A stretch of DNA of 62,068 nucleotides from Parcubacteria group bacterium ADurb.Bin115. Its GTDB lineage: Bacteria; Patescibacteriota; Patescibacteriia; Patescibacteriales; UBA12465. Positions 1 through 62,068 of this stretch are shown here, piece after piece (position 1 is the stretch's first letter; every line of letters begins with the position of its first letter). Both the position numbers and the translations under genes were made by a program. The stretch spans positions 1-62,068 of the forward strand of contig MWDX01000014.1 in NCBI GenBank assembly GCA_002070735.1, in the 5' to 3' direction. The notes under the pieces are model-generated. The model worked only from the letters and a program-made list of their open reading frames with translations. It was not told the origin of the DNA and made no database searches.

Positions 1-106
1 GCATTATTTAGGTCGTCCAGCTGATGCCTTTAACTTAATGAGAAGTAAAGCCTTGGGAATTTCTAACGCAAATATCAGACAGATCCCAGTGGGTGAAGTT
101 AAATAA
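1..106 (+). CDS. 3' end of a gene cut by the window edge; repeat-module envelope/secreted protein fragment
   Basis: Frame 2 reads HYLGRPADAFNLMRSKALGISNANIRQIPVGEVK then TAA at 104-106. This is the same YLGRPADAF-x-MR-x-LGLGI module that is duplicated in the 43390-44640 protein. Confidence 0.5.
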   Translation, partial: HYLGRPADAFNLMRSKALGISNANIRQIPVGEVK

Positions 107-130
107 TCTAGTTATAAAATAAAATACTAC

Positions 131-157
131 AAAAGACCTGTGTTTACAGGTCTTTTT
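131..157 (+). terminator. Rho-independent terminator after the truncated upstream gene
   Basis: AAAAGACCTGT / ACAGGTCTTTT stem with a 4-nt loop, followed by a T run. Confidence 0.65.
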
Positions 158-279
158 GTATGATAGGGTATAATTAAAAATATTATTATAATAGTTCTTA
201 GGATTGAGGCCTTGTATTTCATCTATTATTAGCCACCCAAGTCCGAAAACTATCCCTCCAGGCGAGCCGAGATGAACGG

Positions 280-308
280 AAACAGACAGCGATGTCTGTT
301 TTTGTTTT
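280..308 (+). terminator. Orphan terminator-like hairpin with no annotated gene upstream
   Basis: AAACAGACA GCGA TGTCTGTTT followed by TTGTTTT. It lies about 120 nt after the previous terminator, in a non-coding stretch. Confidence 0.4.
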
Positions 309-497
309 AATGTAAGTCTATATTCCGAGTTCCAAAGTAGTCCGAAAATATTGATATATTTTTACTATTTTAGTAAACATACGGATTTTATTGACTTAAA
401 AAAGTCCGAATCCATTCCACTGTGTCCATTTCACTGTTTAAAAAAAATAATTATTGACATATAATGAATAAGTAAAGCGATTTAAATCACAATATTT

Positions 498-995
498 ATG
501 GCTATTCATTATTCAATTTCATCTCTGCTCAGGGAATCAATAACAGAGTATTTAGCAGTATCTGAATACTGTGTTGGATACAGAAAAGATCGAGATATTT
601 GGGGGTCAACTGGATGTTTTGGTTATCCGGCTGCTGTTTTGCTATTAGCTATTGCGGATTCAATCGGATCATATGTAATAGGGGGAGATACAAGAAATCA
701 TTTTAAAATATTAAATTATAAAGAATATTATAATTTAAATTTGACCAATGAAGAGCTTAAACTAGTTTATGAAGATCATCGTTGCTTATTAACACATAAT
801 GCTGCCATGAGTCTTAATGTTGGTTTAAGCGTTGGAGAAGATAAAACTGAAATTGTTGAACGAAAAGATGGTAAATTATATTTAAACCTAGAGCCATTTT
901 TAAAAATATCAAAAATCGCTGTTGCTAAATTTTTTAACGACATAGACAATATCGTAAATAATAGTGATCAGATTAATAAAATATTAAACAAATAG
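498..995 (+). CDS. Hypothetical protein, no family recognised
   Basis: 165-aa ORF with an ATG start in the AT-rich accessory block. TATAAT at 459-464 lies upstream. No motif I can name. Confidence 0.5.
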   Translation: MAIHYSISSLLRESITEYLAVSEYCVGYRKDRDIWGSTGCFGYPAAVLLLAIADSIGSYVIGGDTRNHFKILNYKEYYNLNLTNEELKLVYEDHRCLLTHNAAMSLNVGLSVGEDKTEIVERKDGKLYLNLEPFLKISKIAVAKFFNDIDNIVNNSDQINKILNK

Positions 996-1262
996 AATAT
1001 TTTAAAGAAGCTAGATTTTAAATTAGATTGTGTAGTTAAAAAACACAGGCGAGTGTTTATTGATAAAAATAATAATTTCGAGTTAGTTCTTGATAAAGTT
1101 GTTGGTCTTGGATACTTTATGGAAATTGAGTATGTTGGTAAAATGACGAAAATTAACGGTCAAAAATTTCAAGAGTTAATTAATTATCTTAACCTTAAAG
1201 AAAGTCAGATCATATCCGGTTGTGGTTACCCAGATTTACTAATGGAAAAAAATAAGATATAA
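996..1262 (+). pseudogene. Remnant of a CYTH-domain (CyaB/ThTPase-like) gene; only the C-terminal third survives
   Basis: The frame is open from 996, immediately after the TAG of the preceding ORF. It reads ILKKLDFKLDCVVKKHRRVFIDKNNNFELVLDKVVGLGYFMEIEY..., matching the C-terminal K-x-R ... LD ... LG-x-F-x-EIE pattern of CYTH proteins. The N-terminal ExExK part is absent. Confidence 0.55.
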
Positions 1263-1278
1263 CTTATAACTTATACAT

Positions 1279-2460
1279 ATGAATTTTGAACAAAATAATA
1301 ATTTGAAGAATGAATCATTGGAACCAAATGAGATAAGCGACCCCTCTTCTAAAGAAGTATCTAATAATGATTCTATTATTTCGGAGCAGGAGTTAATTGA
1401 TTTAAAAAAGAAGGATGAAGAAAAAACAAATTTTGAGCTAGCTAAAATTAGGGAGTCTATTAGTGGTAATTTAGATAACGACAAAGAATCAGAAAGAGTT
1501 TTTGATTTAACAATAAAAGAAGGTGAAACTGATTTTGATTTTTTGGGACGCTTATCTAAATTTTTAGTTGATAAACAAGAAATACAAAATATTAAAAATA
1601 ATCCTGACGGAAATGATAAAATAATTAAACTTTTAAAGAAAAAAGAAGATCAAATAAATGAGGTTTATCAAGATAAAGATAATGAAAAGCTTATTAGGCT
1701 TTCATTTATTGAAGCAACGAAATCTTTAGGCAATAGTGAATTATTAAATAATAAGGAAAATGAAAGATGTTTAAATGACATAGATATTTCAATCAGTTCT
1801 AGAAATATGAGCTGGGATTTAAATGAAAAGTCTAAACATGAAGATAGGATTAATTTTTTTTCTGAAACAAATCAAGAGAGATCTTTCTTTCCGTCTCGTT
1901 ACAAAAAAGATAACATTTACTATTCCGGCAGTCTTTTTAATGTCCACTCTAACTCGCCTGAAGCTAGAGAATATTTAAAGAATAAATTAGACGGAAAAGT
2001 TATATACCTTTTAGGTGGGGGTAAATCAGTGAATGACTTACTGCAGGACAATCAAATAAACCCTAAACAGATTGTAAATATTGACCCATTTATATCGGAA
2101 GAGGACATCGAAAAAAATAAAAAAGGTTTTTATAGGTCGATTCCCGAAAGGGCGGATAGTAAAAATTTAATAGAAAAAATTAATAACGAAAAGATAGAAT
2201 TAGCTGATGAAATTTGGGCCTCTTATTCAGTGCCTTTTTATAATGAGTCAGTAGAAGAAATTGATAATCTTATTAGTAATATTAAAGGATTATTAAAAGA
2301 GGGAGGGAACTGTCGTATAACTCCAATTAGCACTCAAAACGAAAAAGCTAAACAGGCAATGCTATATAATTTAAAACAAATTGTCGACTCTAAAGAATAC
2401 AATATACATGCCAATAAAGATACTTTAATTATTCATAAATTATTCATAAATAGAAATTAG
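1279..2460 (+). CDS. Hypothetical protein: low-complexity N/K/E-rich N-terminal half plus a C-terminal Rossmann-like, methyltransferase-like region
   Basis: 393-aa ORF. The C-terminal part has VIYLLGGGKS (motif I-like), NIDP, ADEIWASYSVPFY and LLKEGGNCRITPI, which resembles the LLKPGG motif of class I SAM methyltransferases. Confidence 0.45.
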   Translation: MNFEQNNNLKNESLEPNEISDPSSKEVSNNDSIISEQELIDLKKKDEEKTNFELAKIRESISGNLDNDKESERVFDLTIKEGETDFDFLGRLSKFLVDKQEIQNIKNNPDGNDKIIKLLKKKEDQINEVYQDKDNEKLIRLSFIEATKSLGNSELLNNKENERCLNDIDISISSRNMSWDLNEKSKHEDRINFFSETNQERSFFPSRYKKDNIYYSGSLFNVHSNSPEAREYLKNKLDGKVIYLLGGGKSVNDLLQDNQINPKQIVNIDPFISEEDIEKNKKGFYRSIPERADSKNLIEKINNEKIELADEIWASYSVPFYNESVEEIDNLISNIKGLLKEGGNCRITPISTQNEKAKQAMLYNLKQIVDSKEYNIHANKDTLIIHKLFINRN

Positions 2461-2495
2461 TCACATCGGGTTTGATTAAAACTATATTTACAATT

Positions 2496-3761
2496 ATGAC
2501 CATAAAAAATAAACCGGAACTATTGGCGCCAGCCGGTAATTTAGAAAAATTAAAGACCGCTTTAGCTCACGGTGCCGATGCGGTCTATTGTGGTTTGCCG
2601 GATTTTTCTTTACGTACTCGCGTTAATGATTTTTCTTTGGAAGATATTAAGGAAGGGATTGTCTATGCCCACGCTTTAGGCAAGAAGGTTTACATTACTT
2701 TAAATATTATCGCTCGTAATAATCATCTGGCCAAGTTAAAAAGTCATGTCAGAAAATTAAAGACGCTCAAGCCGGACGCTATCTTTATCGCCGATCCCGG
2801 CGTTTTAGAAATAGTTAAAGCAATTTGGCCGGGGGCACGCTTGAGTCTAAGTACGCAGGCTAATTGCACCAATATTGCCTCTGCTCGTTTCTGGGCGAAA
2901 CAGGGATTTAAGCGTTTAATTTTGTCGCGAGAACTGGGAATAAAAGAAATTGCTGCTATTAAAGCTGGTCTTAAAAATACGGAAATAGAAGTCTTCGTGC
3001 ACGGTGCTTTGTGCAGTTCCTATTCTGGCCGCTGCTTCTTATCTGATTATTTTAGCGGCCGTAGCGCTAATCTCGGCGATTGCGCTCAGCCTTGTCGCTG
3101 GGAATATGAAATTAAACCGTACGGGCACGAAAAAAGCCTGATTGTGGGCGAAGACACGCATGGTACTTATTTTTTGAATTCTAAAGATTTATGTTTGCTT
3201 GAACGTTTGCCGGAAATAGTCCATGCCGGTGTTAACGCTTTGAAAATAGAAGGCAGAGCCAAGAGCGTATATTATCTAGCTAATGTGGTCGGCGCCTATC
3301 GTCGGGCCTTAGATTTGATTGCCGCGGGCAAAGCCAAGGCGGTTCTTAGAAAAGAGTTGTCTTTTTTAAAGTCGGAATTAACAGAAAAATTAAATCAACG
3401 CGGCTATACCGAAGGCTTTATGTTTACAAGAGAGGACAATCTGCAGAATTATGAGGGTAATTTTCCGGATTCTCCTTGGGAATTTTGCGGTCAAGTTATT
3501 TCCAGTCTTAAACAAGGAAAACATTTTATACTACTAGTTAAGGTTCACAATACTTTATTGGCTGACGATGAATTAGAAATTATTGCGCCCGCTTATCGTG
3601 TCAATCAGATAAAAGCGGCGGCGATGCGAGACGCCGAAACGGGCGATGAAATTTATGAAGCTCATGGCGGCGGCGGAAACAGCCACATTTTAATTACGTC
3701 CGCCAAAAATTGGCCAGCCTATAGCGTTTTGCGCCGTCGTTTAAGAAAAACAAGCTCTTAA
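2496..3761 (+). CDS. Peptidase U32 family protein (collagenase-like / RlhA-TrhP family)
   Basis: PELLAPAGNLEKLKTALAHGADAVYCG and the U32 signature EVFVHGALCSSYSGRCFLS. The ATG at 2496 is preferred over the TTG at 2472 used by the ORF track. Confidence 0.85.
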   Translation: MTIKNKPELLAPAGNLEKLKTALAHGADAVYCGLPDFSLRTRVNDFSLEDIKEGIVYAHALGKKVYITLNIIARNNHLAKLKSHVRKLKTLKPDAIFIADPGVLEIVKAIWPGARLSLSTQANCTNIASARFWAKQGFKRLILSRELGIKEIAAIKAGLKNTEIEVFVHGALCSSYSGRCFLSDYFSGRSANLGDCAQPCRWEYEIKPYGHEKSLIVGEDTHGTYFLNSKDLCLLERLPEIVHAGVNALKIEGRAKSVYYLANVVGAYRRALDLIAAGKAKAVLRKELSFLKSELTEKLNQRGYTEGFMFTREDNLQNYEGNFPDSPWEFCGQVISSLKQGKHFILLVKVHNTLLADDELEIIAPAYRVNQIKAAAMRDAETGDEIYEAHGGGGNSHILITSAKNWPAYSVLRRRLRKTSS

Positions 3762-3796: not shown

Positions 3797-4273
3797 TTAG
3801 TTAAAATATTTGGCTATGACTGAGCCGATGCCGTTGCTCAGTAAAAGTACGGCTATGGCTATCACTAAATGTTCGCCTAAGCTTTCTAAACGGCTTTGTC
3901 CCTGGCTTTTAGCCAAAAAATAACTAAGAAGACTAAGAATGCTTAGTCCCCAGACGATGCTGATGATAATGGCCGTGGACAAGGAAAAAAATATAACCGG
4001 GACGACAAAGGTAAGGGCAAAGATGAATTTAAACAAGAAAGTAAAGCCGGTAGCGGCCAAGACTTCTTTGGCTATTGCCCCCTTTTCAGTTTCTTTGGAA
4101 ACATGAACTCCAAGCGCATCCGAGAAAGCATCGGCAAGGGCGATGGTTAAAATGCCGCCGATAACGGCTAGTTTTGAGCCAGTGGAAGCGTTCAGGCCAA
4201 TCATCAGACCTAGAGTCGTGATAACCGCCGAGGTTAGACCGAAGCCTAGTCCGGTCAGCATAGATTTATTCAT
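3797..4273 (-). CDS. VIT1/CCC1-like (DUF125) small integral membrane protein
   Basis: 158 aa with about 5 hydrophobic helices. The ALADAFSDALGVHVSKETE acidic loop is typical of short VIT-family proteins. Confidence 0.5.
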   Translation of the reverse strand: MNKSMLTGLGFGLTSAVITTLGLMIGLNASTGSKLAVIGGILTIALADAFSDALGVHVSKETEKGAIAKEVLAATGFTFLFKFIFALTFVVPVIFFSLSTAIIISIVWGLSILSLLSYFLAKSQGQSRLESLGEHLVIAIAVLLLSNGIGSVIAKYFN

Positions 4274-4316: not shown

Positions 4317-5453
4317 ATGTCTTTATGGCGGGAAAAAAATAAAAAATTTTTATTTTTGCTTCTTGGCAGCTTAGTTTTTTTGTGTTCTCTCTTTTTTTAT
4401 CAAATCAGCGGCAACGGTCTGGAGGTTCGGCCTGATATCAATTCTGAAAGAAATGAAAAAGATAAGAATGAAAAAGATAAGGAGGAAAAAATATGGCCAG
4501 AATTACCGATGCGCCCACCTTTGGTTTTATTATTCGGCGGTGATGTTATGCTATCGCGCACTGTTAACGCCAAAATGGCTGCCTATGATGATTATGAGTG
4601 GCCGTTTGCACAAATATCTCAATTAACATCTAGCGCCGATATTACCATCTTCAATCTTGAGTCTCCTTTTTTAAAAGATGCCGATTATAATGTTCCTTCC
4701 GGCTCTTTTATGTTTAAGGCCGACCCGAAAGCTATTATTGGTTTGCAGGCGGCAGGAGTGGATGTTTTGTCTTTAGCCAATAATCATATAATGAATATGG
4801 GTGGCCGGGGTCTTGATGATACCTTGTCGATTTTACAAATGGCGGGAATAGGCGCTGTTGGCGCCGGTCAAAATGAAAAAGCGGCGCGTCAAGGATATTT
4901 GTGGACAGGTAAGGGTTGGAAAGTCGCCTTTTTATCCTATGCCTATCCTGATGATAATAGTGTTGCCGGCGAAAAAAAGCCTGGCATCTCTACCATGGAT
5001 GTGGACAATTTGCGGGAAGATATCGCGCGTTGGCGCCATCAAGCCGATTTAGTGATCGTTTTGATGCACGCCGGCACGGAATATGTTTCTTCTCCCAATA
5101 AAGAGCAAGTAACTTTTGCCCGGGCGGCGATTGATGCCGGCGCTGATGCCGTTATCGGCCATCACCCTCATTGGCCACAGTCTTGGGAAATATATCAGAA
5201 TAAGCCGATTTTCTATTCTTTAGGCAATTTGGTTTTTGATCAGATGTGGTCAAGGGAAACCAGCCAGGGATTATTGGCCCGTCTGACTTTTAACGATAAT
5301 TTTTCTGGGCAGGCAGAATTGTGGCCAATTATTATCAGTGATTACGGACAGGCGCAATTATGGCCGGAAGTTGTGCCGGAATCTATTTTTTGGGATGCCT
5401 ATGATTTACCGATTCCAGCTGATTTATCTTGGCCAGCCCTCGGCGGCAATTAA
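4317..5453 (+). CDS. capA: CapA-family metallophosphoesterase-like protein (poly-gamma-glutamate capsule synthesis family), N-terminally membrane anchored
   Basis: GGDVMLSR, NLESP, LANNH, LMHAGTEY and GHHPH motifs. N-terminal hydrophobic anchor. Confidence 0.8.
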   Translation: MSLWREKNKKFLFLLLGSLVFLCSLFFYQISGNGLEVRPDINSERNEKDKNEKDKEEKIWPELPMRPPLVLLFGGDVMLSRTVNAKMAAYDDYEWPFAQISQLTSSADITIFNLESPFLKDADYNVPSGSFMFKADPKAIIGLQAAGVDVLSLANNHIMNMGGRGLDDTLSILQMAGIGAVGAGQNEKAARQGYLWTGKGWKVAFLSYAYPDDNSVAGEKKPGISTMDVDNLREDIARWRHQADLVIVLMHAGTEYVSSPNKEQVTFARAAIDAGADAVIGHHPHWPQSWEIYQNKPIFYSLGNLVFDQMWSRETSQGLLARLTFNDNFSGQAELWPIIISDYGQAQLWPEVVPESIFWDAYDLPIPADLSWPALGGN

Positions 5454-6246: not shown

Positions 6247-7616
6247 ATAGGGAGACTAACCGTAAAAGCGCTGCCTTTCCCCAGCTGGCTATCAACCGCG
6301 ATCGCGCCTTGGAAATCATTTTCAATAATTTCTTTGACTATGCTAAGACCGAGACCCACGTTTTTACTGTCTTCGGGCTTGGTGGTAAAAAAGATATTAA
6401 AAATTTTATGCAGATGATCGGGCGGGATGCCGATGCCGTTGTCTTTAACGGAAATTAAAAGTTTATTTGAATCAGTTTGTTTTTTAATTGTGATTTTAAT
6501 TATTCCGGCTGTTGGCTTATTTTGCGCGCAAGCATCAATAGCATTGGATAAAAGATTCATAAATATCTGTCCGAAGCGGATAGGTCCTCCTTTGATATAA
6601 TAGTCGCCCTCCGCTTCAAGTTGGATTATGGTTTGTGACGCTCTCGCTTTTCCTTCCATAATTTTTTGGATTTTTTCTATTTCTTGCCTGACGGAAAAAT
6701 ATTTTTCTTGGTTTTGCCGGCGCAGACAGCGGTTGGCACTATTGATTAATTCGTTGATTCTGGCGGTGGCGCTCAGAGCTTGTTGAACGTACACGTTTGA
6801 TTTTTCAATTTCGCAGTCGCCTTTCGTTTCTATTTGTTCGAGGTTAAGGCTAACAATGGTAAGCGGATTGATAATATCGTGAAAAATACTGCTTGTCAGT
6901 TGTCCAATACTGGCTAAAGCCTGCAGTTGTTCCAGCTTTTCCCGCTGCATTATTTTCACTGCTTTAGTTCTTTCGGCGACCTTAATTTCTAATTCTTCGT
7001 TAATTTTATTAAGCTCCTCTTGTTTATGTTTTAAGGACAAAAAAGTTTGTTTATTTTCTTTTACGATCATCCAGGCAAGTCCGAAAATGAGTCCGAGAAC
7101 AATAACATAAGATAGAGCATCGGCTAATTGCATCGGTTGTTGGCGCCAATCGTTATTTACTTTGATTATTTGGTTTGTTTGCAGCCAATTTAAGCCGATG
7201 ATGGCGCCAGCAAAGATTGAAGCAATAGTTAAGGCCGCTTTCGTATTTAAAAAGATGCCGGCTAACATGATTATAAGCACCGTCATTAATAAAGCGGCCG
7301 GCAAGTCCGCCCCCCAATAACTTAAACAGAATATTGTCGGCAAGGTATAGGCGGTAATCAGCAGCCAGGCGCTTAGATTCCTATAACCTTTTTTAAACAG
7401 AATTTGGAGAATAATAAAAAATGCCAATAGTCCGAGCGTTGCGCTTAAGGGGAGTCCTTGATTATCGGGATTAATAATAAAATCATGCAAGCGGATAAGA
7501 TTAAGTAGAAACATGATGACGATTGAGATGGCTAAACTTTTTTCTAGCTTTTTTTCTGCTGGTGATGTTGATTTTATTGATTTCAGCCAGGCTGCCCATA
7601 TTTTTTTAAACTTCAT
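6243..7616 (-). CDS. Sensor histidine kinase with a multi-pass membrane sensor region
   Basis: About 6 N-terminal TM helices, a coiled coil, the H-box SSIFHDIINPLT and an HATPase_c region (NLLSNAIDA, DNGIGI, GLGLSI). The ATG at 7616 (MKFKK) is preferred over the upstream track start at 7727. Confidence 0.85.
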   Translation of the reverse strand: MKFKKIWAAWLKSIKSTSPAEKKLEKSLAISIVIMFLLNLIRLHDFIINPDNQGLPLSATLGLLAFFIILQILFKKGYRNLSAWLLITAYTLPTIFCLSYWGADLPAALLMTVLIIMLAGIFLNTKAALTIASIFAGAIIGLNWLQTNQIIKVNNDWRQQPMQLADALSYVIVLGLIFGLAWMIVKENKQTFLSLKHKQEELNKINEELEIKVAERTKAVKIMQREKLEQLQALASIGQLTSSIFHDIINPLTIVSLNLEQIETKGDCEIEKSNVYVQQALSATARINELINSANRCLRRQNQEKYFSVRQEIEKIQKIMEGKARASQTIIQLEAEGDYYIKGGPIRFGQIFMNLLSNAIDACAQNKPTAGIIKITIKKQTDSNKLLISVKDNGIGIPPDHLHKIFNIFFTTKPEDSKNVGLGLSIVKEIIENDFQGAIAVDSQLGKGSAFTVSLPI

Positions 7617-7890
7617 AAAAATAAATTTTGTTGATATTAATTTCGGTTCTTCGCAAGGGGTTTTCCGAAAATTATAAAAGCGCCTTCCTTTAAAAGACAG
7701 GAAGGCGCTTAGGTTTAACTGCGCCAAGGGGTGCCGGGATTATCGATATTTTCCGGTTTTTGACCAGTTAAGTGTGAAAATTTTTTCATATAAGGATATT
7801 TTCGTTTTTTGTAAAGCGGCTCGACCGCGGACTTTATTTGTCCCCGCTCTTATAATTATAGCGAGCGGAGTCTAAATTCTATTTAACATT

Positions 7891-8562
7891 TCAGATAGAT
7901 GTGTCCAATTTATATCCGCGTCCAATAATGCTGTGAATTAACTTAGGTTGATGGTTGTCTATTTTCCGTCTTAGCCTGAGGATGTGCGTCTCCACGGTAT
8001 TAGAAAAGGGATCGACATCGCCACTCCAGACATGTTCCAATAAAGATTCCCGAGAAACTATTTTTCCGGCATTAAGAAGAAGATGTTGGAGTAAAGAAAA
8101 CTCCTTGTTAGTTAAGCGTATATCTTTATTAGCTCTTCTGACTTTAAATGATTTTGGCTCCAGTTCTAAGTCTGCAAAAATCAGTTTTTCTTCTTTAATT
8201 GTTTGCGGTCTCCTTAGTAGCGCCCTGATTCTGGCTAGCAGCTCTTCTCCGGAGAAGGGTTTGCTTAGATAATCATCGGCCCCGATATCTAAAATATTAA
8301 TTTTATCAATTATACTTTGGCGGACGCTAAGCATGATGATAGGTACATTGCGTCCGTCGTCCCTAATTTCTTTAATAATACTGCCACCATCGAGTTTAGG
8401 CAAAACATAGTCAGTGATAATTAAGTCATAAGCTTGAGTTCGGGCCATAAATGAGCCTTTTTCGCCGTCATTGGCAATATCGACGGCAAAGCCGGCCTTC
8501 TTGAGGAGAGAGCCTAGTAATTCGGCTAAATTTTTTTCATCTTCAATAATAAGTAAGCGCAT
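7891..8562 (-). CDS. OmpR-family response regulator (receiver plus winged-helix)
   Basis: MRLLIIEDE...DLIITDYVLPKLDG...SKPF receiver motifs. C-terminal LELEPKSFKVRR...LTNKEFSLLQHL...GRGYKL trans_reg_C pattern. Confidence 0.9.
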   Translation of the reverse strand: MRLLIIEDEKNLAELLGSLLKKAGFAVDIANDGEKGSFMARTQAYDLIITDYVLPKLDGGSIIKEIRDDGRNVPIIMLSVRQSIIDKINILDIGADDYLSKPFSGEELLARIRALLRRPQTIKEEKLIFADLELEPKSFKVRRANKDIRLTNKEFSLLQHLLLNAGKIVSRESLLEHVWSGDVDPFSNTVETHILRLRRKIDNHQPKLIHSIIGRGYKLDTSI

Positions 8563-11119: not shown

Positions 11120-11806
11120 ATGGATTTAAGTAAACGTCAACAATTAATCCTACACACCTTGTTAAAAGAGTACGTGAAAAGTGCTCAACCTGTCGCCTCC
11201 GGTATTTTGGTGGAAAAATATCATTTAGACATTTCTCCGGCCACCGTCCGCAATGAGTTAATGTATTTAGAGGAAGAGGGTTATATTTATCAGCCCCATA
11301 CTTCGGCGGGAAGAGTGCCGACCGAGAAGGCCTATTTATTGGAATTAGCTACTGCTGGCGTCAAGAAGCGCGATTTGCGCCAGAGTGATAAGGACAGTTT
11401 AGAATTGGCTTTATCCTCAATTGATAATTTAAAACCGGCGGCTAAAGTTTTAGCGGAGTTATCTGGCAATGCTGTTTTTTGGGCTTTTCATAAGAATAAT
11501 CTCTATCATACCGGTCTATCTAATCTTTTTGCTCAACCTGAATTTAAGCAGACGGAAATTGTTTACGATGTGTCTCAAGTAATCGACCGGATGGAAGAAA
11601 TTATTGATAATCTTTTTAATGATTTGCCGGACGGTCCGAAAGTGTTTTTGGGCGAAGACAATCCTTTCGGTTCTTTCTTAGGTACGGTGATTTTAAAATA
11701 CCGCCAAGATGGCGTTTCCGGCTTGGTGGGTATTTTAGGCCCAATACGTATGGACTATAACCGCAATCTCTCACTTCTTTCTTATTTGTATGAATATTTT
11801 AAATAA
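11120..11806 (+). CDS. hrcA: Heat-inducible transcription repressor HrcA, short form (228 aa)
   Basis: The N-terminal winged-helix reads RQQLILHTLLKEYVKSAQPVASGILVEKYHLDISPATVRNELMYLEEEGYIYQPHTSAGRVPTEKAY. It lies next to CIRCE and grpE. Confidence 0.85.
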   Translation: MDLSKRQQLILHTLLKEYVKSAQPVASGILVEKYHLDISPATVRNELMYLEEEGYIYQPHTSAGRVPTEKAYLLELATAGVKKRDLRQSDKDSLELALSSIDNLKPAAKVLAELSGNAVFWAFHKNNLYHTGLSNLFAQPEFKQTEIVYDVSQVIDRMEEIIDNLFNDLPDGPKVFLGEDNPFGSFLGTVILKYRQDGVSGLVGILGPIRMDYNRNLSLLSYLYEYFK

Positions 11807-55610: not shown

Positions 55611-56309
55611 TTATTTCGCATTATCCGCATTATCACCGAAGATCAGTTTTTTGTAGAATTGCTTTTCTGGAGGAAGCAGGCTGATTAATTGTAAGCATTG
55701 CTTACATTCTTTCAGGACGTGCCCCTCTTTTTCTGTCATTTCTTTTTCTGACTCCTCGGTCATTTTTTTGATACGAGAAAGCAAAAGTTCTTCCACTTCC
55801 TCTACGGATAACTTAAATTTTTTATCAAGCCGGGACGAGGCTTCAAGGGCGATTGTCACGTTGCCGTTCTTTACAGCCATCCTTTTGGCCAGATACAGCC
55901 ATGTAGTTAACAATTCTGAGCTTAGGTTTACGTATCTAGTGGCGGCCATGATTTGAATTTCAAGCGCGGGCTTTTTTTGTTTGATCAGCCGTTGTACCAT
56001 AATTTTTAGGGCGCCTATGCTTATTGGTATCGATAAGCGGGTTGCTGAATCTATTAATTCAGCAATATTTTCCCCCGCTTTTAAATAAGCGATAAAACGT
56101 ACGTTCGCCTCTTGATTATTCAAAGCTAATAAAGTTGCAACAATTTTTTTTGCCCCCATGTTTTGATAAGCAGTATCCCATTCTTCATATTTTAGTTGAC
56201 GTTGGTCAATAAGAATGGCGGCGTTGATGGCGCCAGCCAAATTATGATTGGCGAGACATAATCCAATTATAGCCTCGGCCATGTTTAATTTTTGATTATT
56301 ATTTGCCAT
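55611..56309 (-). CDS. Hypothetical all-alpha protein
   Basis: 232-aa ORF with an ATG start. No recognisable motif. Lies between the two tRNA genes. Confidence 0.5.
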   Translation of the reverse strand: MANNNQKLNMAEAIIGLCLANHNLAGAINAAILIDQRQLKYEEWDTAYQNMGAKKIVATLLALNNQEANVRFIAYLKAGENIAELIDSATRLSIPISIGALKIMVQRLIKQKKPALEIQIMAATRYVNLSSELLTTWLYLAKRMAVKNGNVTIALEASSRLDKKFKLSVEEVEELLLSRIKKMTEESEKEMTEKEGHVLKECKQCLQLISLLPPEKQFYKKLIFGDNADNAK

Positions 56310-56477: not shown

Positions 56478-56482
56478 ATGTG

Positions 56483-56555
56483 TGCGCCCAGGGGGATTCG
56501 AACCCACGACCGTCTCCTTAAAAGGGAGCTGCTCTACCAACTGAGCTATAGGCGC
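56483..56555 (-). tRNA. tRNA-Lys (anticodon UUU), CCA not encoded
   Basis: The reverse complement is GCGCCTATAGCTCAGTTGGTAGAGCAGCTCCCTTTTAAGGAGACGGTCGTGGGTTCGAATCCCCCTGGGCGCA. It forms a cloverleaf with anticodon loop CTTTTAA. There is one T-C mismatch in the T stem. Confidence 0.8.
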
Positions 56556-56667
56556 TCTTTGTTAAATAAAAAATTTAACAACAGATGTAATTATTCTGAT
56601 GTTAACAAAAATATTTTTTTTTGACAAGGGTTTGTATTAGTATGGCTGTTTTTTATTATGTAGTATT

Positions 56668-56814: not shown

Positions 56815-57531
56815 TTATAAATCATCTAAAGGACTATTGATTTCCTGTAATTTTGGAGTGGAAACTTGGAGGTAAATTTGGGTTGTTTCTAATCCTTTGT
56901 GGCCTAATAACTTTTGGATGTATCTAATATCAACTCCTTTCTTTAACAAATGGGTGAATAAATATTGATCGTCATCTTCTCTTGTTTCTAAAAAAGTTTT
57001 CAAATCTTTATTGGCTCTTTTTGAAAGAATAGTTTGGCGATCTTTTTCCTTTGCCTAAATTGACCCTGATAATTCCTTCTGCTAAATCAATATCCTTTAT
57101 TTAATTTAATGGCTTCTGAAACTCTTAATCCCGAAACATACATAATTTCCATTAGTAATTTATGCTTTAGATTTGCTGTCGCTTCACCATTTTTCTGATT
57201 TCATCTTTAGTCAAAACAACCGGTAGGCGTTTTTCTTTCTTTGGGTGTTTGATATCAAAAAAATCTTCTTTTAAGAACTTAAGTATAATAAAATTTCAAG
57301 ACGTTGATGGCTAAACTCAAAGTAGCGTTAGAAACTTCTTTATTAGCCAAATATCTTTTAATATCTTCATTGGCAATTTCTTTTGGACTTTTTTGTATAA
57401 TTTAAGAATTTTCTGTTATAATGTAGATAACCCTTGATGGTCTTACGACTAAATCCGCGAATCTTAAGCTCGCGTTCAAAGTTATACATTGGGTCGCGTT
57501 CAATTCTGGTTGTTCGAAATTCTGTGTTCAT
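56815..57531 (-). pseudogene. Decayed tyrosine recombinase/integrase gene (Xer/IntI superfamily)
   Basis: The N-terminal SAM-like domain is intact (NFERELKIRGFSRKTIKGYLHYNRKFLNYTKKS). A frameshift then gives SPKEIANEDIKRYLANKEVSNATLSLAINVLKFYYT, followed by stops and frameshifts through ...KEKRLPVVLTKDEIRKM...[26 protein letters not shown]. The last frame reads [43 protein letters not shown]...SPLDDL. The segment that should carry the HxxR box is deleted. Confidence 0.8.
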
Positions 57532-57595
57532 AGTGTATATGATTACACAAAAAGGTCGATTTTTAAGCAAGCTTTAAATAGGTGTGGTTAAAACT

Positions 57596-57656
57596 TGTTA
57601 GGCGTAATTTAGAAGGTCACTCTTTCTCCGACCACCCACCCAAAATGACGGCGCGC
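57596..57656 (-). repeat. Partial, inverted copy (copy C) of the GC-rich element; contains GTTAGGC
   Basis: Three blocks, TGTTAGGCGT (57596-57605), AGAAGGTC (57611-57618) and GACGGCGCGC (57647-57656), are exact reverse complements of 58453-58462, 58388-58395 and 58366-58375, in collinear order. Confidence 0.6.
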
Positions 57657-57697
57657 TAAAAAGAAACATATATAAATTATCTAATTTAAATAAAATT

Positions 57698-58348
57698 ATG
57701 GTTACTCAATATGATAAAATTTCTCAAAAATTTAAAAATGCCGACGAATCTGTTCCTGATGTTACAAGACCAATTCTTTATTCTCTTGTAACAAAGAAGA
57801 AAGGAAAACTTTTGGATTTGGGTTGTGGTTACGGAGAAGATTTAGTTCATTTTCAAAAAGAAGATTTCGAAGTTTATGGAATTGATGTTTCAAAAGAAAT
57901 GGTTAAAGAGGCAGAAAAGAAAAGCCAAGGTGCAAAAGTTTCTGTTTCTTCTTTTGAAAAACTTCCTTATGATGAAGAAACTTTTGACATAATCTTTAGT
58001 AGATATGCTTTACAGCATTCAGACAAAATTACTCCAATTTTTAAAGAAGTATCTCGTGTCTTGAAAAAAGGTGGAGAGTTTGTTTTCTTGGTTACTCATC
58101 CCATAAGACATTATTTTGAAAAGAAAACAAAAGATTACTGGAAACAAGAAATTTGTTCTTCGTTAATTTTAGGCGGAAAAGTAAGAGTTGAAGAACCTTC
58201 TCATAAATTAAATGAATATATCAACAAAGAAATTCTTTCCAAATTTGATTTAATTGATTTTATTGAAGAATTTGACCCTGCCGCAGAAAAAATCAAAGAT
58301 GCAGGAAAATATCCAAGTATTCTAATTTTGAAATTTAAAAAAAGATAA
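57698..58348 (+). CDS. Class I SAM-dependent methyltransferase (Methyltransf_11/25-like)
   Basis: LLDLGCGYGED (motif I), GIDVS, FDIIFSRYALQH, VLKKGGEFVFLV. Confidence 0.85.
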   Translation: MVTQYDKISQKFKNADESVPDVTRPILYSLVTKKKGKLLDLGCGYGEDLVHFQKEDFEVYGIDVSKEMVKEAEKKSQGAKVSVSSFEKLPYDEETFDIIFSRYALQHSDKITPIFKEVSRVLKKGGEFVFLVTHPIRHYFEKKTKDYWKQEICSSLILGGKVRVEEPSHKLNEYINKEILSKFDLIDFIEEFDPAAEKIKDAGKYPSILILKFKKR

Positions 58349-58363
58349 TTTTATGTTAAAACA

Positions 58364-58570
58364 ACGCGCGCCGTCCCACTACCGCGAGACCTTCTGAACT
58401 CAAAAATTCGCAGAATTTTTGCCACGCCCTGCGGGCTTTCACTTCGTTCAGGACGCCTAACAGCGATTAACAGGGAAATTCCTGCGAAATTTTCCTGAAT
58501 TCTGCTTCGCAGAACTTCTGTTAATCGCAATGTTATATTCAATCAGGGATCGGCTTAGAAAAGCGCGCGT
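58364..58570 (+). repeat. GC-rich nested-hairpin element, copy B (full length, about 207 nt), including an attC-like 84-nt imperfect palindrome
   Basis: Closing stem ACGCGCGC (58364-58371) / GCGCGCGT (58563-58570). TGAACTCA (58395-58402). Hairpin AAAAATTC-GCA-GAATTTTT (58402-58420). GCCTAAC (58455-58461). GCGATTAACAG (58463-58473) pairs with CTGTTAATCGC (58518-58528). Inner hairpin TTCTGC-TTC-GCAGAA. Confidence 0.6.
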
Positions 58571-58606
58571 AAAGAGTAAATTTAATAAATTCATTTAAAT
58601 ATTATT

Positions 58607-59329
58607 ATGAAGAACAAAGAATTTTTTTATCTGCAATATAATAAAGTAAATTGGCAGAATCAAGAAAAAACAAAAATCAATTCTTTTGTAGATAATTTTA
58701 TTATCCAAAATATCATTTCAAAGAAAGAAGGAGATGAAATTAAAATTTTTGATATTGGTTTTGGTATTGGTTTTTTTCTTCGGATGTTGCAAAAAAATTT
58801 ATCCAAATCTTTCAAAACCATAATTCTTGAGGGTTGCGAACCTTCTCGCAAGAATTATAAATATTTCAAATCAAAACCATTAAATCTAAAGAACACAAGA
58901 CTTAGAGTTTTCAATAAAACTTTTCTTCAAACAAATACAGATACAAAATTTGATTTTCTGACGGCGATATATGTTTTTACCCATTTTGCATCCGATGAGT
59001 TAAATGATGTCGCCCAAAAAATAAATTCAATGCTGAACAATGAAGGCAAACTTATTTTAGTAGTTGCTAATGAAAAGTATTTAGAAGAAAAACTAAAATC
59101 CAAAAAAGATCTTTTCATTGAAAGAAACATATTTGAATTTGACAACCAGAAATATAAAGAAGTTCTTCATTATTCAGAGATTCCACAGATTGGCACTATC
59201 ATAGATTATAATAGAGAAGAAAAGTTTTATCCTGATTTATTCAAGAGGCATGGTTTTAATTTAGACTCAAAGAAAGATTTAGACGATAATGGATTTATAT
59301 GTACGATTTTTGTTTTTTCAAAAAGATAG
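58607..59329 (+). CDS. Class I SAM-dependent methyltransferase-like protein
   Basis: IKIFDIGFGIGFFL (motif I-like), FDFLTAIYVFTHF, MLNNEGKLILVV. Confidence 0.7.
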   Translation: MKNKEFFYLQYNKVNWQNQEKTKINSFVDNFIIQNIISKKEGDEIKIFDIGFGIGFFLRMLQKNLSKSFKTIILEGCEPSRKNYKYFKSKPLNLKNTRLRVFNKTFLQTNTDTKFDFLTAIYVFTHFASDELNDVAQKINSMLNNEGKLILVVANEKYLEEKLKSKKDLFIERNIFEFDNQKYKEVLHYSEIPQIGTIIDYNREEKFYPDLFKRHGFNLDSKKDLDDNGFICTIFVFSKR

Positions 59330-59607
59330 TCGTGCGCCAAGAAATAGGAAGAGCCAACGATATAAAAGAAATAATTGAGGAAGAATTACAATCAACTTTG
59401 TTTGATTTTTCTGATTTTGAATGGGCAAAAGAATACATTTTTGATGTTGTTGTGAGATAAAAAATAAATTTTAAATTTCTAGTTTCGCCCAAATTTTTGT
59501 TCCATTTCATTGTGCAAAAACTTTGCATATTCGTAAGCGTTAGACAAAATTGATTTTCGGGTGCCAATAGATATTTTTATAAATTGAATCTACTTACAAA
59601 TATAATT

Positions 59608-60411
59608 ATGTATAGACCTTGTAAAATGAATGTTGATAAAAATAGTAAAAAGGTTGTATTTGAATTAACAACATATTGTAATTTAGATTGCCGCCACTGT
59701 ATTTATAGTATTTCAAATAAACCCTATTCTTCTAATTTTCTTTCAAGAAAAGAGGCATATAGTCTGATTGATAAAATTTCCAAAAAGAAGATATACAAAC
59801 TTGTTTTAACGGGAGGGGAGCCAACGTTACACCCTGACTTCATTGATATTTCTAAATACGCAATTTCAAAAATTCCAAAAGTTTCTCTTTGTACTAATGG
59901 CGTTATCTTGAATAAGAGTTTAGAAAATAAAGTGGTTAATTTAAATTTCTCAACTTATACTATTAGCATAGATTCTCATATTGATAAAATCCATGATAAA
60001 ATTAGAGGGAAGAAAGGGGCATTACAAAAAACACTTGGTTTTATAAAAAAGCTTAAATCAAAAAACAAAAACATATCTATTCATATCGCACTCCATCCAG
60101 AAAATGTTGATGCAATGAAAGATACTATTAAATTTTGTAAAGGTCTTGCGCCAGAAGTGGTCATAAGTTCAATTTATCATTATGATAAAATATATACGAA
60201 TTTAAATACAATAAAAGATTACAAGTTAATGTCAAAAAAGTTTTATGAAAAATATAAAAATAATCCCGAGGTTACCCTTGTTGGCTTTAAAACATTTTGC
60301 ACAAATAAAGATTGTTTAGATCAAAAAAATATTTTTATGGTTAATAGCAAGGGCGAACTAGTAACATGTTATTGGAAGAAAAATGGGGGTAAAGTAGTTA
60401 AAAAATATTAA
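59608..60411 (+). CDS. Radical SAM enzyme (MoaA/NifB/PqqE-like core), substrate unknown
   Basis: ELTTYCNLDCRHCIY (CxxxCxxC), LVLTGGEPTL, a CTNG motif, and extra C-terminal Cys residues (FCTNKDCLD...TCYW). ATG at 59608 preferred over TTG at 59584. Confidence 0.8.
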   Translation: MYRPCKMNVDKNSKKVVFELTTYCNLDCRHCIYSISNKPYSSNFLSRKEAYSLIDKISKKKIYKLVLTGGEPTLHPDFIDISKYAISKIPKVSLCTNGVILNKSLENKVVNLNFSTYTISIDSHIDKIHDKIRGKKGALQKTLGFIKKLKSKNKNISIHIALHPENVDAMKDTIKFCKGLAPEVVISSIYHYDKIYTNLNTIKDYKLMSKKFYEKYKNNPEVTLVGFKTFCTNKDCLDQKNIFMVNSKGELVTCYWKKNGGKVVKKY

Positions 60412-60434
60412 TTTATATAATTTGATAATTTATT

Positions 60435-61514
60435 ATGGAGATTAAAGATAAATATTTATTTTCAAATGTGCATGATTTTGAGTATATCAAAAAGGTTTTG
60501 TTAAATAAGAAACTTTCTGGTACGGCGGATATTGTTAATGAATATGAACTAAAACTGGCTAATTTTTTTAATTCAAAATTTGCTGTCGCCACTTCTTCTG
60601 GTACTTCAGCGATACAAACTGCTCTTTTCGCTGCTGGTGTTAATCAAGGAGATGATGTAATAGTATCTTCTACATGCCCAGTAATGTCTGTTTTTCCAAT
60701 AATACAATCAGGTGCCAATATAATCTTCTGCGATACTGTAAAAGATAATTTTGGATTAAGTGTTAATGAAATAGAAACATTAATAACATCTAAAACAAAA
60801 GCGGTAATTGAGGTGCCTATGTGGGGCTATCCTACTAATGTAAAAGAGTTGCAGCGGGTTCTTAAATCTAAAAATATTCCATTAATATTGGATTTAGCCC
60901 AAGCACACGGAACGAAACTGAATAATCACTATTTATCATATTACGGAGATATTTCTTGCTTTAGTACGCATGATAGAAAAATTCTTGCAACCGGCGAAGG
61001 TGGTTTCCTCCTGACAAATAATGAAAACTATTATAACAAATCAAAAAGTTTCATTGCTTTTGGAAATATGAATACCATTGATTATGGGCTTAACTTTAAA
61101 CTCGGAGCTTTACAGGCAGCATTAGGGTTAAATAGAATTGACTATATTTCCAAACAATTAAAAATAAGAAAAAGCAATGCCCAGTATATAAAAGATGGTC
61201 TGGAGCATCCTCAAATAAGTGAATTAGCTATAATTGAGAAGGGAGAACCTAATTATTATACCTTGTTATTAAAACTAAATTTGGAGGATACTCATAAATT
61301 TATTGATTATCTATCTGACAAAGGAATTCCTTCAGATATAATTAGATACAATTGCAAGGTATTGTATAAATATCCCATACTAAGTAAATTTAAAAGAGTT
61401 TGTCCAAATTCCGAGAAGCTTTTACAAAGTATCACTACAATTCCGGTCCATCCGGGGCTTAAGAGACATGAAATTGACTACATAATTTCCACAATAAATA
61501 ATTTCAGGTATTAA
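60435..61514 (+). CDS. DegT/DnrJ/EryC1/StrS-family PLP-dependent aminotransferase
   Basis: ATSSGTSAIQTALFA, ILDLAQAHG and FSTHDRKILATGEGGFL, with the Schiff-base Lys in the family-typical context. Confidence 0.88.
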   Translation: MEIKDKYLFSNVHDFEYIKKVLLNKKLSGTADIVNEYELKLANFFNSKFAVATSSGTSAIQTALFAAGVNQGDDVIVSSTCPVMSVFPIIQSGANIIFCDTVKDNFGLSVNEIETLITSKTKAVIEVPMWGYPTNVKELQRVLKSKNIPLILDLAQAHGTKLNNHYLSYYGDISCFSTHDRKILATGEGGFLLTNNENYYNKSKSFIAFGNMNTIDYGLNFKLGALQAALGLNRIDYISKQLKIRKSNAQYIKDGLEHPQISELAIIEKGEPNYYTLLLKLNLEDTHKFIDYLSDKGIPSDIIRYNCKVLYKYPILSKFKRVCPNSEKLLQSITTIPVHPGLKRHEIDYIISTINNFRY

Positions 61515-61516
61515 AT

Positions 61517-62011
61517 ATGGTATTTAATAAGAATAACGTAGAAAAACATTTTACCGCCTCTGCCTTAATTATTAATAAAGAAAAGAAGGTATTATTAGTT
61601 AATCACCGAAAGTTAGGTGTCTGGCTTTATCCCGGAGGACATGTTGAATGGAATGAAACTCCAGATGAAACAGTTGTGCGGGAAGTTAAAGAAGAAACTG
61701 GTTTGAATGTGGAAATAATTAGTGACCGGGACAGTACCTTGTCTGATCTAGAAGCAGATGTTTCCGTGCTGCACCATCCTTATGTTATACTATGTGAAAA
61801 AATAAATGGAGATAACCAACATTATCATCTTGATTTGATTTATTTATGTAAAATAGAGAATGAAGAAAACAGTGAGCTACATTATAACCCTAAAGAATCA
61901 TCTGATATTAGATTTTTCAGTTTAGAAGATTTAAATAATATAAATTTATTTCCTAATTTTAGAAAATTACTTGAGAAAATATTAAAACAAAAAGTACCCA
62001 CTGAAGAATAG
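61517..62011 (+). CDS. Nudix hydrolase with a canonical Nudix box
   Basis: GGHVEWNETPDETVVREVKEETGL fits G-x5-E-x7-REUxEExGU. Confidence 0.88.
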   Translation: MVFNKNNVEKHFTASALIINKEKKVLLVNHRKLGVWLYPGGHVEWNETPDETVVREVKEETGLNVEIISDRDSTLSDLEADVSVLHHPYVILCEKINGDNQHYHLDLIYLCKIENEENSELHYNPKESSDIRFFSLEDLNNINLFPNFRKLLEKILKQKVPTEE

Positions 62012-62068
62012 GCATATGTGGGATGTGTGAATTAATTCTGTGTAAAGATATTTAAAATATTATATAAT

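Follow-up and report, generated by a model that had tools for sequence, protein, structure and literature searches.

When a cassette enters an integron, insertion splits the R' box of the recombination site: the bases after G|TT become the first ones of the cassette, and its end retains their complement (R''). The enzyme is part of the definition as well. Integrons are defined by the integrase IntI with an additional domain near patch III (Messier & Roy 2001, as cited in PMC9668308), and this domain is regarded as the innovation behind the recombination of folded attC sites (PMC9668308; PMC4792948). The archaeal integrons reported in 2022 also have an IntI with the additional domain. For the question of how integrons arose from Xer-like ancestors, an Xer-like, domain-free platform that obeys the cassette signature offers a concrete test system. 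Here we describe a candidate for such a platform in a stretch of 62,068 nucleotides (nt) from contig MWDX01000014.1 of assembly GCA_002070735.1 (Parcubacteria group bacterium ADurb.Bin115); the whole stretch is called the window below. A tyrosine recombinase pseudogene in it is transcribed divergently from an attI-like site, site A, beyond which lie methyltransferase cassettes with attC-like hairpins at their ends. With a probability of about 0.7, we regard this locus as the relic of an integron-like, site-specific cassette platform that has an Xer-type recombinase and a hairpin-site family of its own.

The original prediction, a first reading made from the letters of this DNA, had described an integron-like layout in a genome resembling the candidate phyla radiation (CPR), and this description holds up. 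The host is indeed a CPR bacterium (Parcubacteria group bacterium ADurb.Bin115/Ca. Paceibacterota) from anaerobic digesters, and the locus was found at 99.8 to 100% identity in at least 21 metagenome contigs, with the same recombinase pseudogene in each. A recombinase pseudogene on the minus strand, a methyltransferase open reading frame (ORF) on the opposite strand, GTTAGGC upstream of the recombinase start, GCCTAAC with an 84-nt attC-like palindrome, and a further GTTAGAC had been reported, and all of them are present where they had been placed (Table 1). Together they make up a divergent tyrosine recombinase, an attI-like site, and palindrome-closed cassettes with boundaries of the G|TT type. 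The platform is supported by a homology boundary at the site, by covariation in the hairpins, by complementarity between the starts and ends of cassettes, by arrays next to intact recombinases, and by cassette replacement at the level of strains.

GTTAGGC (57597-57603) lies 66 nt upstream of the ATG of the pseudogene (57529-57531, minus strand) and within a conserved site of 20 nt; GTTAGGC and GCCTAAC each occur once in the window. Conservation covers the 100 nt upstream of the recombinase gene in at least 10 unrelated contexts and stops at ...GGTGCGTTTAAAACTTGTTA, which was found upstream of the recombinase in loci L011, L013, L014, L015/L034, L018, L019, L020, L022, L025, L026, L035, and L043. 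Past site A, only a loose NNNNNAAT and a CTCGG-like word remain, and the sequence is otherwise unrelated between loci. A chance origin of the core-type motifs, raised earlier as a caveat, can be set aside because the same arrangement recurs in independent loci. Site A answers to attI in being the primary insertion site beside the integrase gene, and its sequence is unrelated to attI1. From the sequence, we infer that GTTA (57597-57600) is the crossover point of site A and that cleavage occurs at G|TT; homology with a sister strain (L051, see below) ends at 57599, inside site A. The promoter-like stretch between site A and the gene is kept in the upstream alignments of at least 10 loci and, judged by its motifs, is probably the promoter of the recombinase gene. 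A generic promoter scan gave the background level (15 found, 14.6 expected), and terminators were likewise at background.

The bases that follow GTTA are specific to each locus. We took them locus by locus and sought their reverse complement on the cassette side. The complement was found 0.3 to 1.7 kb away in the window and in L011, L013, L014, L015/L034, L020, and L026, always in the context nnnnTAAC-AGCG-stem, with the 3' arm (stem'-CGC, 2 to 4 nt, T-GTTA) 60 to 110 nt further on. Two candidate partners of site A were rejected, one in L028 as a chance match inside a 23S rRNA gene and one in L026 as the second recombinase copy. A further observation concerns L022, where site A (3979-3993) and an inverted partner (4918-4932; GTTAGTTGC versus GTTAGTTAC) lie 0.9 kb apart with an ORF of 250 amino acids (aa) between them; neither of the covariance models R1 and R2, described below, finds a hairpin at this partner, which may be a decayed site or a different arrangement.

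In the window, the two ends of cassette 1 share a perfect inverted match of 10 nt, TGTTAGGCGT (57596-57605) and ACGCCTAACA (58453-58462). The 3' end folds into hairpin 1, in which GCCTAAC (58455-58461) is followed by A-GCGATTAACAG and the returning arm reads CTGTTAATCGC-AA-TGTTA (58518-58535). The inner part is a three-way junction with two small hairpins, after which come the 2-nt bulge AA and T. As DNA, the 84 nt fold with -19.3 kcal/mol, compared with -6.4 ± 2.1 kcal/mol for shuffled sequences (z = -6.1; 0 of 200 shuffles as good), and the element scores 87.2 bits with R1 and 74.9 bits with R2. Complementarity between the cassette ends (57596-57656 versus 58366-58462) is distributed over three blocks, TGTTAGGCGT/ACGCCTAACA, AGAAGGTC/GACCTTCT, and GACGGCGCGC/GCGCGCCGTC, and therefore the hairpin stem could reach beyond the R box in a circular or single-stranded form.

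Nine elements were aligned with MAFFT and share an outer structure with compensatory changes in 9 of 19 pairs. Model R1 was built from these nine elements and R2 from 22 model hits; with both, 22 copies of the family were found, distributed over 13 loci. The alignment of these 22 sequences, which is fitted to the model, has 89.6% of its cells paired; shuffles give 71.7%, and slid partners no more than 44%. Both-sided changes occur in 74 cells (27.7 expected), and the covariation score is 0.467 versus 0.151, a value that none of 500 shuffles reaches. Compensatory changes affect 9 of the 12 pairs of the long stem, the sequence of which is free between loci (GCGATTAACAG, GCGTGTTTGCG, GCCGTTAAGCG, GCGGATAAAAG, and others); kept are the structure, the bulge position, an internal hairpin CCAAATT...AA(C)TT, and the TAAC/GTTA ends. 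The general form is an imperfect palindrome of 90 to 110 nt with a 2- to 4-nt bulge, a stem of 11 to 12 bp, and a three-way junction. Of the architecture of attC sites, the TAAC/GTTA ends, a bulge, and covariation are present, and the unpaired spacer and the canonical extrahelical positions are absent. At E < 0.1, the remainder of the 62-kb window, L039 (a homologue in a housekeeping context), L037 (Clostridiaceae), and 50 kb of true integrons gave no hairpins; in the integrons, R2 recovered 0 of 12 Vibrio cholerae repeats (VCRs) and no class 1 attC sites (best score 13 bits, E ~2). A proxy for the canonical attC model, R3, was made from 8 VCRs and 4 class 1 attC sites (RNAalifold kept 9 pairs). 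It recovers all 12 VCRs, four of them untrained. To the window hairpin R3, a model of limited sensitivity that missed an untrained blaIMP attC, gives only 10.5 bits (E = 3.1), and to other CPR hairpins, being weaker than IntegronFinder's own model, 9.7 to 12.3 bits (E 1 to 5). The attC covariance model had been proposed earlier as a check on the attC-like palindrome; judged by these scores, the hairpins are not canonical attC sites and form a separate family.

The complementarity seen in cassette 1 follows a general rule. Of 120 variable positions compared between hairpin 5' arms and the starts of the cassettes that they close, 92 match (permutation mean, 60.2 ± 5.4; 0 of 200,000 permutations reach this value); in the comparison with the 3' flank of the same hairpin, only 45 of 100 do. 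Fifteen of 24 cassettes match at four or more of five positions, and cassette 1 of the window does so at all five (10 nt in all). Internal cassettes that were located by the model only also obey the rule, e.g., L011_c2, L013_c2, L041_c2, L047_c2, L047_c7, and L051_c2. In the Vibrio superintegron, used as a control, the rule is perfect in eight of eight cassettes.

Arrays also lie next to intact recombinases. In L047 (GCA_964569175.1), an intact recombinase of 285 aa and site A are accompanied by co-oriented cassettes with seven hairpins, one per ORF or ORF pair, all of them on the strand that points away from the recombinase. The units between its hairpins encode a GT28 glycosyltransferase; a 50-aa ORF; IPPT and a 67-aa ORF; a 92-aa ORF; a short-chain dehydrogenase; a PALP enzyme; a glyoxalase; and a 272-aa ORF. 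Arrays with two hairpins are present in L011, L013, L014, L034 (a Saccharibacteria metagenome-assembled genome [MAG]), and L041, and single hairpins in L035, L038, L045, and L028, with weaker ones in L036 (a Moraniibacteriota MAG). The cargo is accessory and defence-biased: it includes two type II restriction-modification systems, an OLD-family nuclease, Yip1, a patatin, an EVE-domain protein, DUF6884, and VIT1. A candidate for one cassette at different array positions (L014 versus L015/L034) was rejected, as ~21 nt are shared at the boundary and the cargo differs. Directly behind the second hairpin of L011 (1380-1480 versus 4975-5060), the final 15 nt of the recombinase gene are repeated identically in inverted orientation, together with ~85 nt of the GC-rich hairpin region downstream of the gene, and therefore the far end of this array is bounded by a fragment of another recombinase unit.

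Cassette content also varies between strains, as the comparison with the sister contigs L051/L052 revealed. Identity to the window is 99.9% up to 57413, 97.6% up to 57599 (...AACTTGTT), and 99.2% from 59535 onward (GCGTTAGAC...). Between 57599 and 59535, the window has 1.9 kb with methyltransferases 1 and 2 and hairpins 1 and 2, whereas L051 has 0.8 kb with an ICMT/PEMT-type methyltransferase and an intact hairpin (R2, 52.3 bits) in the same place as the decayed hairpin 2. The breakpoints of this exchange fall exactly at predicted sites, GTT (57599) and GTTAGAC (59535). In L051, the third unit is closed by a hairpin (11649-11749; R2, 56 bits), the 5' arm of which (GTCTAAC) complements the start of the unit (TTAGAC); in the window's own strain, the end of this unit was replaced by other DNA (L051 versus L001). 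L051 also carries an IS200/IS605-type Y1 transposase element (7547-8102) inside the recombinase pseudogene, at window position 57413.

The array of the window consists of two methyltransferase cassettes and then a radical-SAM/aminotransferase/NUDIX unit, and it is frozen: the recombinase is dead, hairpin 1 is intact, and hairpin 2 is half lost. The methyltransferase of cassette 2 is a second, divergent class I enzyme (Pfam Methyltransf_23, 32.2 bits), and both methyltransferases are acquired cassette cargo in what is now a frozen relic. Cassettes 1 and 2 always occur together, and their arrangement is invariant in 21 contigs, as expected because the recombinase is dead. The original prediction had seen no convincing palindrome after the second methyltransferase, which is correct as far as a complete one is concerned, but a half-decayed hairpin of the family lies there: its 3' half is intact (CCCAAATT...AAACTT-TGCATATTCG-TAAG-CGTTAGAC), its 5' arm is lost, and GTTAGAC occupies 59539-59545. 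Comparison of the intergenic regions of the window against the window itself gave no further copy, and Rfam returned only two tRNAs at the gathering threshold, with chance matches of the microRNA type on the hairpin between 56.4 and 59.7 kb at E ≤ 10. An invertible segment, with inverted sites A and B around the methyltransferase gene, was rejected: other loci show direct-repeat logic, and no contig has the opposite orientation. All contigs of the window's species end ~6.6 kb downstream of methyltransferase 1, and in one strain contig (L005, 14430-15341) a DDE_Tnp_4 transposase stands in place of the second NUDIX gene.

The leaders of the cassettes resemble one another at 57605-57697 and 58540-58606 of the window and at the cassette starts of L014, L034, and L045. 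They comprise, in this order, GTTAnnnnnAAT, a CTCGG/TCGG word, and a GC-rich clamp (GACGGCGCGC at 57647; GCGCGCGT at 58562), followed by an AT-rich, TATAAT-like box 25 to 35 nt before the ATG (repeat D3, in which the leader of cassette 2 resembles that of cassette 1).

Table 1. Features of the cassette locus and its flank (positions are those of the window)
Feature	Position	Strand	Evidence and details
tRNA-Lys(UUU)	56482-56555	-	ARAGORN; Rfam tRNA, 66.4 bits; 260 nt downstream of the recombinase pseudogene; low-GC region begins here
Xer-like ('Cand'/XerA-type) tyrosine recombinase pseudogene	56815-57531	-	Three-frame translation; tblastn against intact P0011; Pfam; NCBIfam
Promoter-like stretch of recombinase gene	57542-57570	-	TTGCTT-N17-GTGTAAT in gene orientation; homologues TTGCTT...TATAAT
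attI-like site A	57580-57609	+	AGGTGTGGTTAAAACTTGTTA|GGCGTAAT; contains GTTAGGC; conserved part ends in GTTA (57597-57600)
Cassette 1 (leader, methyltransferase gene, hairpin)	57598-58532	+	Opens with TTAGGCGT, the complement of which, ACGCCTAA, lies at the 3' end of the same cassette
Class I SAM-dependent methyltransferase, 216 aa (cargo of cassette 1)	57698-58348	+	Pfam Methyltransf_11, 83.6 bits; NCBI name
attC-like hairpin 1, intact	58451-58543	+	R'' GCCTAAC, A, 11-bp stem GCGATTAACAG/CTGTTAATCGC, R' GTTATAT
Cassette 2	58533-59539	+	Starts with TTATATTCAAT; class I methyltransferase ORF (58607-59329, 240 aa) and 53-aa ORF
attC-like hairpin 2, decayed	59451-59550	+	R2 18.0 bits, E = 0.024 (8-kb search); ends in GTTAGAC
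Third unit	59540-62016	+	Starts with TTAGACAAAAT; genes assigned with Pfam
Radical SAM ORF (third unit)	59584-60411		
DegT-type aminotransferase ORF (third unit)	60435-61514		
NUDIX ORF (third unit)	61517-62011		

The recombinase of the window is beyond function. Compared with the intact homologue P0011 by three-frame translation and tblastn, the pseudogene has at least five frame changes and one in-frame stop, and it lacks 41 residues (P0011 199-239), including HSLRHSFA (the HxLRHSFA catalytic box). The region of the catalytic Tyr and the SPLDDL C terminus are still there, the domains are Phage_integrase and Phage_int_SAM_4 (Pfam), and no second copy of the family is present in the 62-kb window. 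The best NCBIfam model for the reconstructed protein is NF040815, with 174.7 bits, which is under the curated cut-off of 220 bits because of the deletion; the second-best is TIGR02249, with 158 bits. IntI versus Xer had been called undecidable at this locus, which is not borne out by the intact homologues. The reconstruction matches thousands of them, the closest of which (68 to 71% identity) are all 285 aa long, and the IntI-specific domain (~40 aa) is never present in intact homologues at 68 to 94% identity. They pass NF040815 (XerA-type) with 229 to 271 bits in a single stretch (profile positions 4 to 261 of 263), fail TIGR02249 (integron integrase; 220 to 248 bits in two stretches, cut-off 265 bits), and fall far below the cut-off of NF011946 (149 to 160 bits, cut-off 435 bits). 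Aligned with IntI1, a homologue has a 40-residue gap at the IntI-specific domain; residues 186 to 203 of P0011 align to residues 180 to 238 of VchIntIA (2a3v), and the best PDB match of a homologue is Pyrococcus XerA (4a8e), with 199.8 bits in one stretch. The name of model NF040815 is 'site-specific tyrosine recombinase/integron integrase', and some of these proteins already bear that label at NCBI, where it was given by the model.

The 'Cand' subgroup was described as Xer-related recombinases of candidate phyla and presumed to be Xer stand-ins (Smyshlyaev et al., PMC8138268). The behaviour of the present subfamily is unlike that of a chromosome-dimer resolvase. It was pseudogenised repeatedly (in the window, L013, L020, L025-L031, and L043), its contexts shift, two copies are sometimes present, and variable cassettes lie alongside, a pattern unlike the single conserved copy of a housekeeping Xer/dif resolution system. 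A distant relative, P0041 (50% identity), has a housekeeping setting near parAB and topA, with no hairpins.

Several observations concern the surroundings of the recombinase gene. tRNA genes lie 200 to 260 nt downstream of it in the window, L019, and L022, in either orientation, and in most loci GC-rich hairpins of the GCGAAGC type lie within the ~100 nt that follow its stop codon. In L028-L031 (~6560-6760), an intact site A and promoter accompany a remnant that encodes the C-terminal 50 aa of the recombinase; the 5' end of a 23S rRNA gene is ~1.7 kb away. In L026/L038 (Parcubacteria ADurb.Bin247), two decayed, inverted recombinase copies, each with site A (L026, 1300-3500), enclose 2 kb with a 402-aa ORF, one hairpin, and a VIT1-family gene.

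How might such a platform work? In our model, an Xer-like recombinase gene is transcribed divergently from the adjacent site A (...AAAACTTG|TTA). Each cassette has a short conserved leader, then one or a few ORFs that point away from the recombinase, and finally an attC-like palindrome with a TAAC/GTTA 'R box'. A cassette in circular form would recombine at the GTT of its hairpin, and its partner would be the GTT in site A or in a second hairpin. The R box would thereby be split: the bases that follow GTT would become the 5' end of the cassette, and the hairpin at the 3' end would retain their complement in its 5' arm. The recombinase is the presumed catalyst of cassette movement, the exact position of cleavage is predicted, and the hairpin may act as folded single-stranded DNA, as attC does.

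Several points weigh against the platform as proposed. It rests on the comparison of sequences. Part of the covariation statistics comes from a model-fitted alignment, and the E-values of the models are rough. The cassette rule is weak or fails in 9 of 24 cassettes, e.g., L035_c1, L047_c1, and L051_c1. The first-cassette partners in seven loci were found via the complement search, which is an ascertainment bias; the partner sites from this search were later recovered independently by the models. To judge from the boxes in their leaders, the cassettes may have promoters of their own, which would set them apart from the cassettes of classical integrons. A few of the MAG labels (TA06, Acetothermia, and Aminicenantes) are non-CPR, and these may be binning errors or reflect a wider host range. 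Finally, both alleles, that of the window and that of L051, share the lesions of the pseudogene; therefore, the swap predates the decay, or used a recombinase in trans, or took place by homologous recombination between the arrays of the strains.

The same platform could use the duplex-DNA chemistry of the Acinetobacter pdif modules, in which case the 'hairpin' would be two back-to-back inverted double-stranded sites (GTTAATCGC..TGTTA), and cassettes would be moved by ordinary Xer-type recombination of duplex sites with no folded strand involved. In favour of this, the enzyme is of the Xer-like kind, without the helix by which IntI recognises extrahelical bases in folded attC; words of the type GTTAA...TGTTA are common to site A and the two hairpin arms; and the gene lies between inverted sites, as in pdif modules (PMC7399989). 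Furthermore, G·T and A·C pairs in the stems are symmetric (28 versus 30), with no sign of a preferred folded strand. However, protein-binding duplex sites should conserve sequence, whereas the long stem is free in sequence and keeps its pairing (9 of 12 pairs compensatory), and the fixed bulge position, the conserved three-way junction, and a bulged C are hard to account for. We consider duplex chemistry unlikely, yet a serious alternative.

An ordinary genomic island beside tRNA-Lys, with a decayed phage-type integrase and with hairpin and heptamers as incidental terminators or chance matches, is very improbable and largely refuted. The tRNA gene is 260 nt from the pseudogene, the GC content falls there from ~0.42 to ~0.30, and tRNA genes also lie downstream of the homologues in L019 and L022. 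Against this stand the lack of a tRNA-Lys fragment (attL/attR duplication) elsewhere in the window, in L001, or in L051; the position of the island on the 5' side of the tRNA; the many tRNA-free contexts of the recombinase with site A; the membership of the hairpin in a conserved, recombinase-linked family; and the fact that strain differences map to the sites and not to the tRNA.

It is just as improbable that the hairpins are an autonomous repeat, such as a miniature inverted-repeat transposable element, a repetitive extragenic palindrome, or a PATE-like element (mobilised, e.g., by an IS200/IS605 Y1 transposase), or an RNA element such as a terminator or stabiliser. The sister strain has a Y1_Tnp element, the small internal stem-loops score terminator-like, and the hairpins sit 3' of ORFs. 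Yet the ends of the insertion sequence (CCCTGCGC..GCGCAGGG, themselves hairpin ends) are unrelated to the attC-like hairpins, the other loci have no Y1 transposase, the hairpins match no Rfam family, and their orientation relative to the recombinase is uniform. Moreover, the ends of a transposing palindrome should be mutually complementary, whereas here complementarity is to the cassette start and is much lower to the hairpin's own flank (92 of 120 versus 45 of 100).

The degenerate classical integron of the original prediction, i.e., an IntI-type integrase with the IntI segment deleted next to canonical attC sites, is refuted as stated: although the layout fits, the IntI-like motifs RLPVVLT and SPLD are present, and TIGR02249 is the second-best model for the pseudogene, the homologues have 285 aa and no IntI domain and lie on the NF040815 side of the cut-offs, the proxy attC model gives no significant score, and the CPR model detects neither VCRs nor class 1 attC sites. 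Of the three outcomes named beforehand as speaking against an integron, the lack of an attC model match (with the proxy model) and homologues of the Xer type without the IntI domain were both observed, whereas the third, invariant gene order in related genomes, is contradicted by the different cassette in L051.

Returning to the flank of the cassette platform, GC falls from ~0.40-0.44 to ~0.30 from ~56 kb to the end of the window. A second low-GC stretch covers positions 1 to 3000 (0.27 to 0.35, versus ~0.40 elsewhere). Between a PHP-domain gene and tRNA-Lys lies a 232-aa ORF (55611-56309, minus strand) with no Pfam or NCBIfam match, kept in all strains and frameshifted in some contigs. A perfect 9-bp inverted repeat with a 5-nt spacer, TTGTTAAAT-AAAAA-ATTTAACAA (56558-56582), abuts the 5' end of tRNA-Lys between this gene and the pseudogene and shares TTGTTAA/TTAACAA words with site A; it could be a core-type recombinase site or a mere AT-rich coincidence.

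The small genomes of CPR bacteria are thought to have few mobile-element mechanisms. The cassette platform would reveal a route of gene capture in these bacteria, with restriction-modification and other defence genes among the captured ones. Tentatively, and with somewhat less than an even chance of being right, we propose that CPR bacteria carry a second kind of integron, with an Xer-like recombinase free of the IntI domain and with folded hairpins, either as an independent invention or as a form that survives from near the transition from Xer to IntI. If true, attC-type, structure-specific recombination does not need the IntI insertion. It would also show that finders keyed to IntI and canonical attC sites miss a whole class of arrays, and the hairpins are possibly useful as new structure-specific recombination sites. 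The interest is high for the family as a whole and modest for the relic in the window alone. We found no description of integron-like arrays in CPR/Patescibacteria in the literature searched, which left out most papers in subscription journals, so that a prior description is possible.

Among known systems, the CTX-phi type of integrative mobile element exploiting Xer has an attP(+) site that is a folded single-stranded hairpin with two inverted half-sites and a bulged centre, recombined by XerCD; the phage genome integrates at chromosomal dif via the host XerCD. An Xer-family enzyme acting on folded inverted half-sites is what the hairpins of the cassette platform would have in common with it. 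The difference is that CTX-phi represents phage integration at dif by host XerCD and not an array of gene cassettes with a dedicated recombinase. XerS/difSL and XerH/difH are single recombinases with a neighbouring site, and archaeal XerA/dif is alike in sequence family (4a8e as the best PDB match, NF040815 passed) and in having its site immediately upstream of the gene; in contrast to such single Xer recombinases, the CPR subfamily is often pseudogenised, changes its contexts, sometimes has two copies, and is accompanied by variable cassettes. With the Acinetobacter pdif modules it shares an Xer-family recombinase, single genes bracketed by inverted sites, and modules strung together. However, a pdif site is a 28-bp duplex with a conserved sequence, and neighbouring modules are separated by a single such site, whereas the CPR sites are paired inverted arms 45 to 130 nt apart with conserved structure and a free stem sequence, and one end of the CPR array is occupied by a dedicated recombinase gene together with the site that belongs to it.

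In contrast to the integrases of integrons, the CPR recombinase has no IntI additional domain (I2 helix region) and belongs to the XerA-type/'Cand' group (PMC8138268). The hairpins have a paired spacer, a 2- to 4-nt bulge between the R and L boxes (3' arm), a perfect L stem of 11 to 12 bp, and the conserved three-way junction; canonical and CPR models are blind to each other's sites, with a proxy model on the canonical side. Furthermore, the cassettes seem to have a conserved leader that includes a promoter-like box, and the hosts are CPR bacteria. The platform is like the class 1 integron and the Vibrio superintegron in other respects: the recombinase is divergent from the adjacent insertion site, the boundaries are at GTT, the cassettes are co-oriented and each ends in an imperfect palindrome with TAAC...GTTA ends and a similar R-to-L spacing, each cassette start is complementary to the 5' arm of the palindrome that closes it (8 of 8 in Vibrio), arrays can reach at least seven cassettes, cassette content differs between strains, and the cargo is accessory or defence-related.

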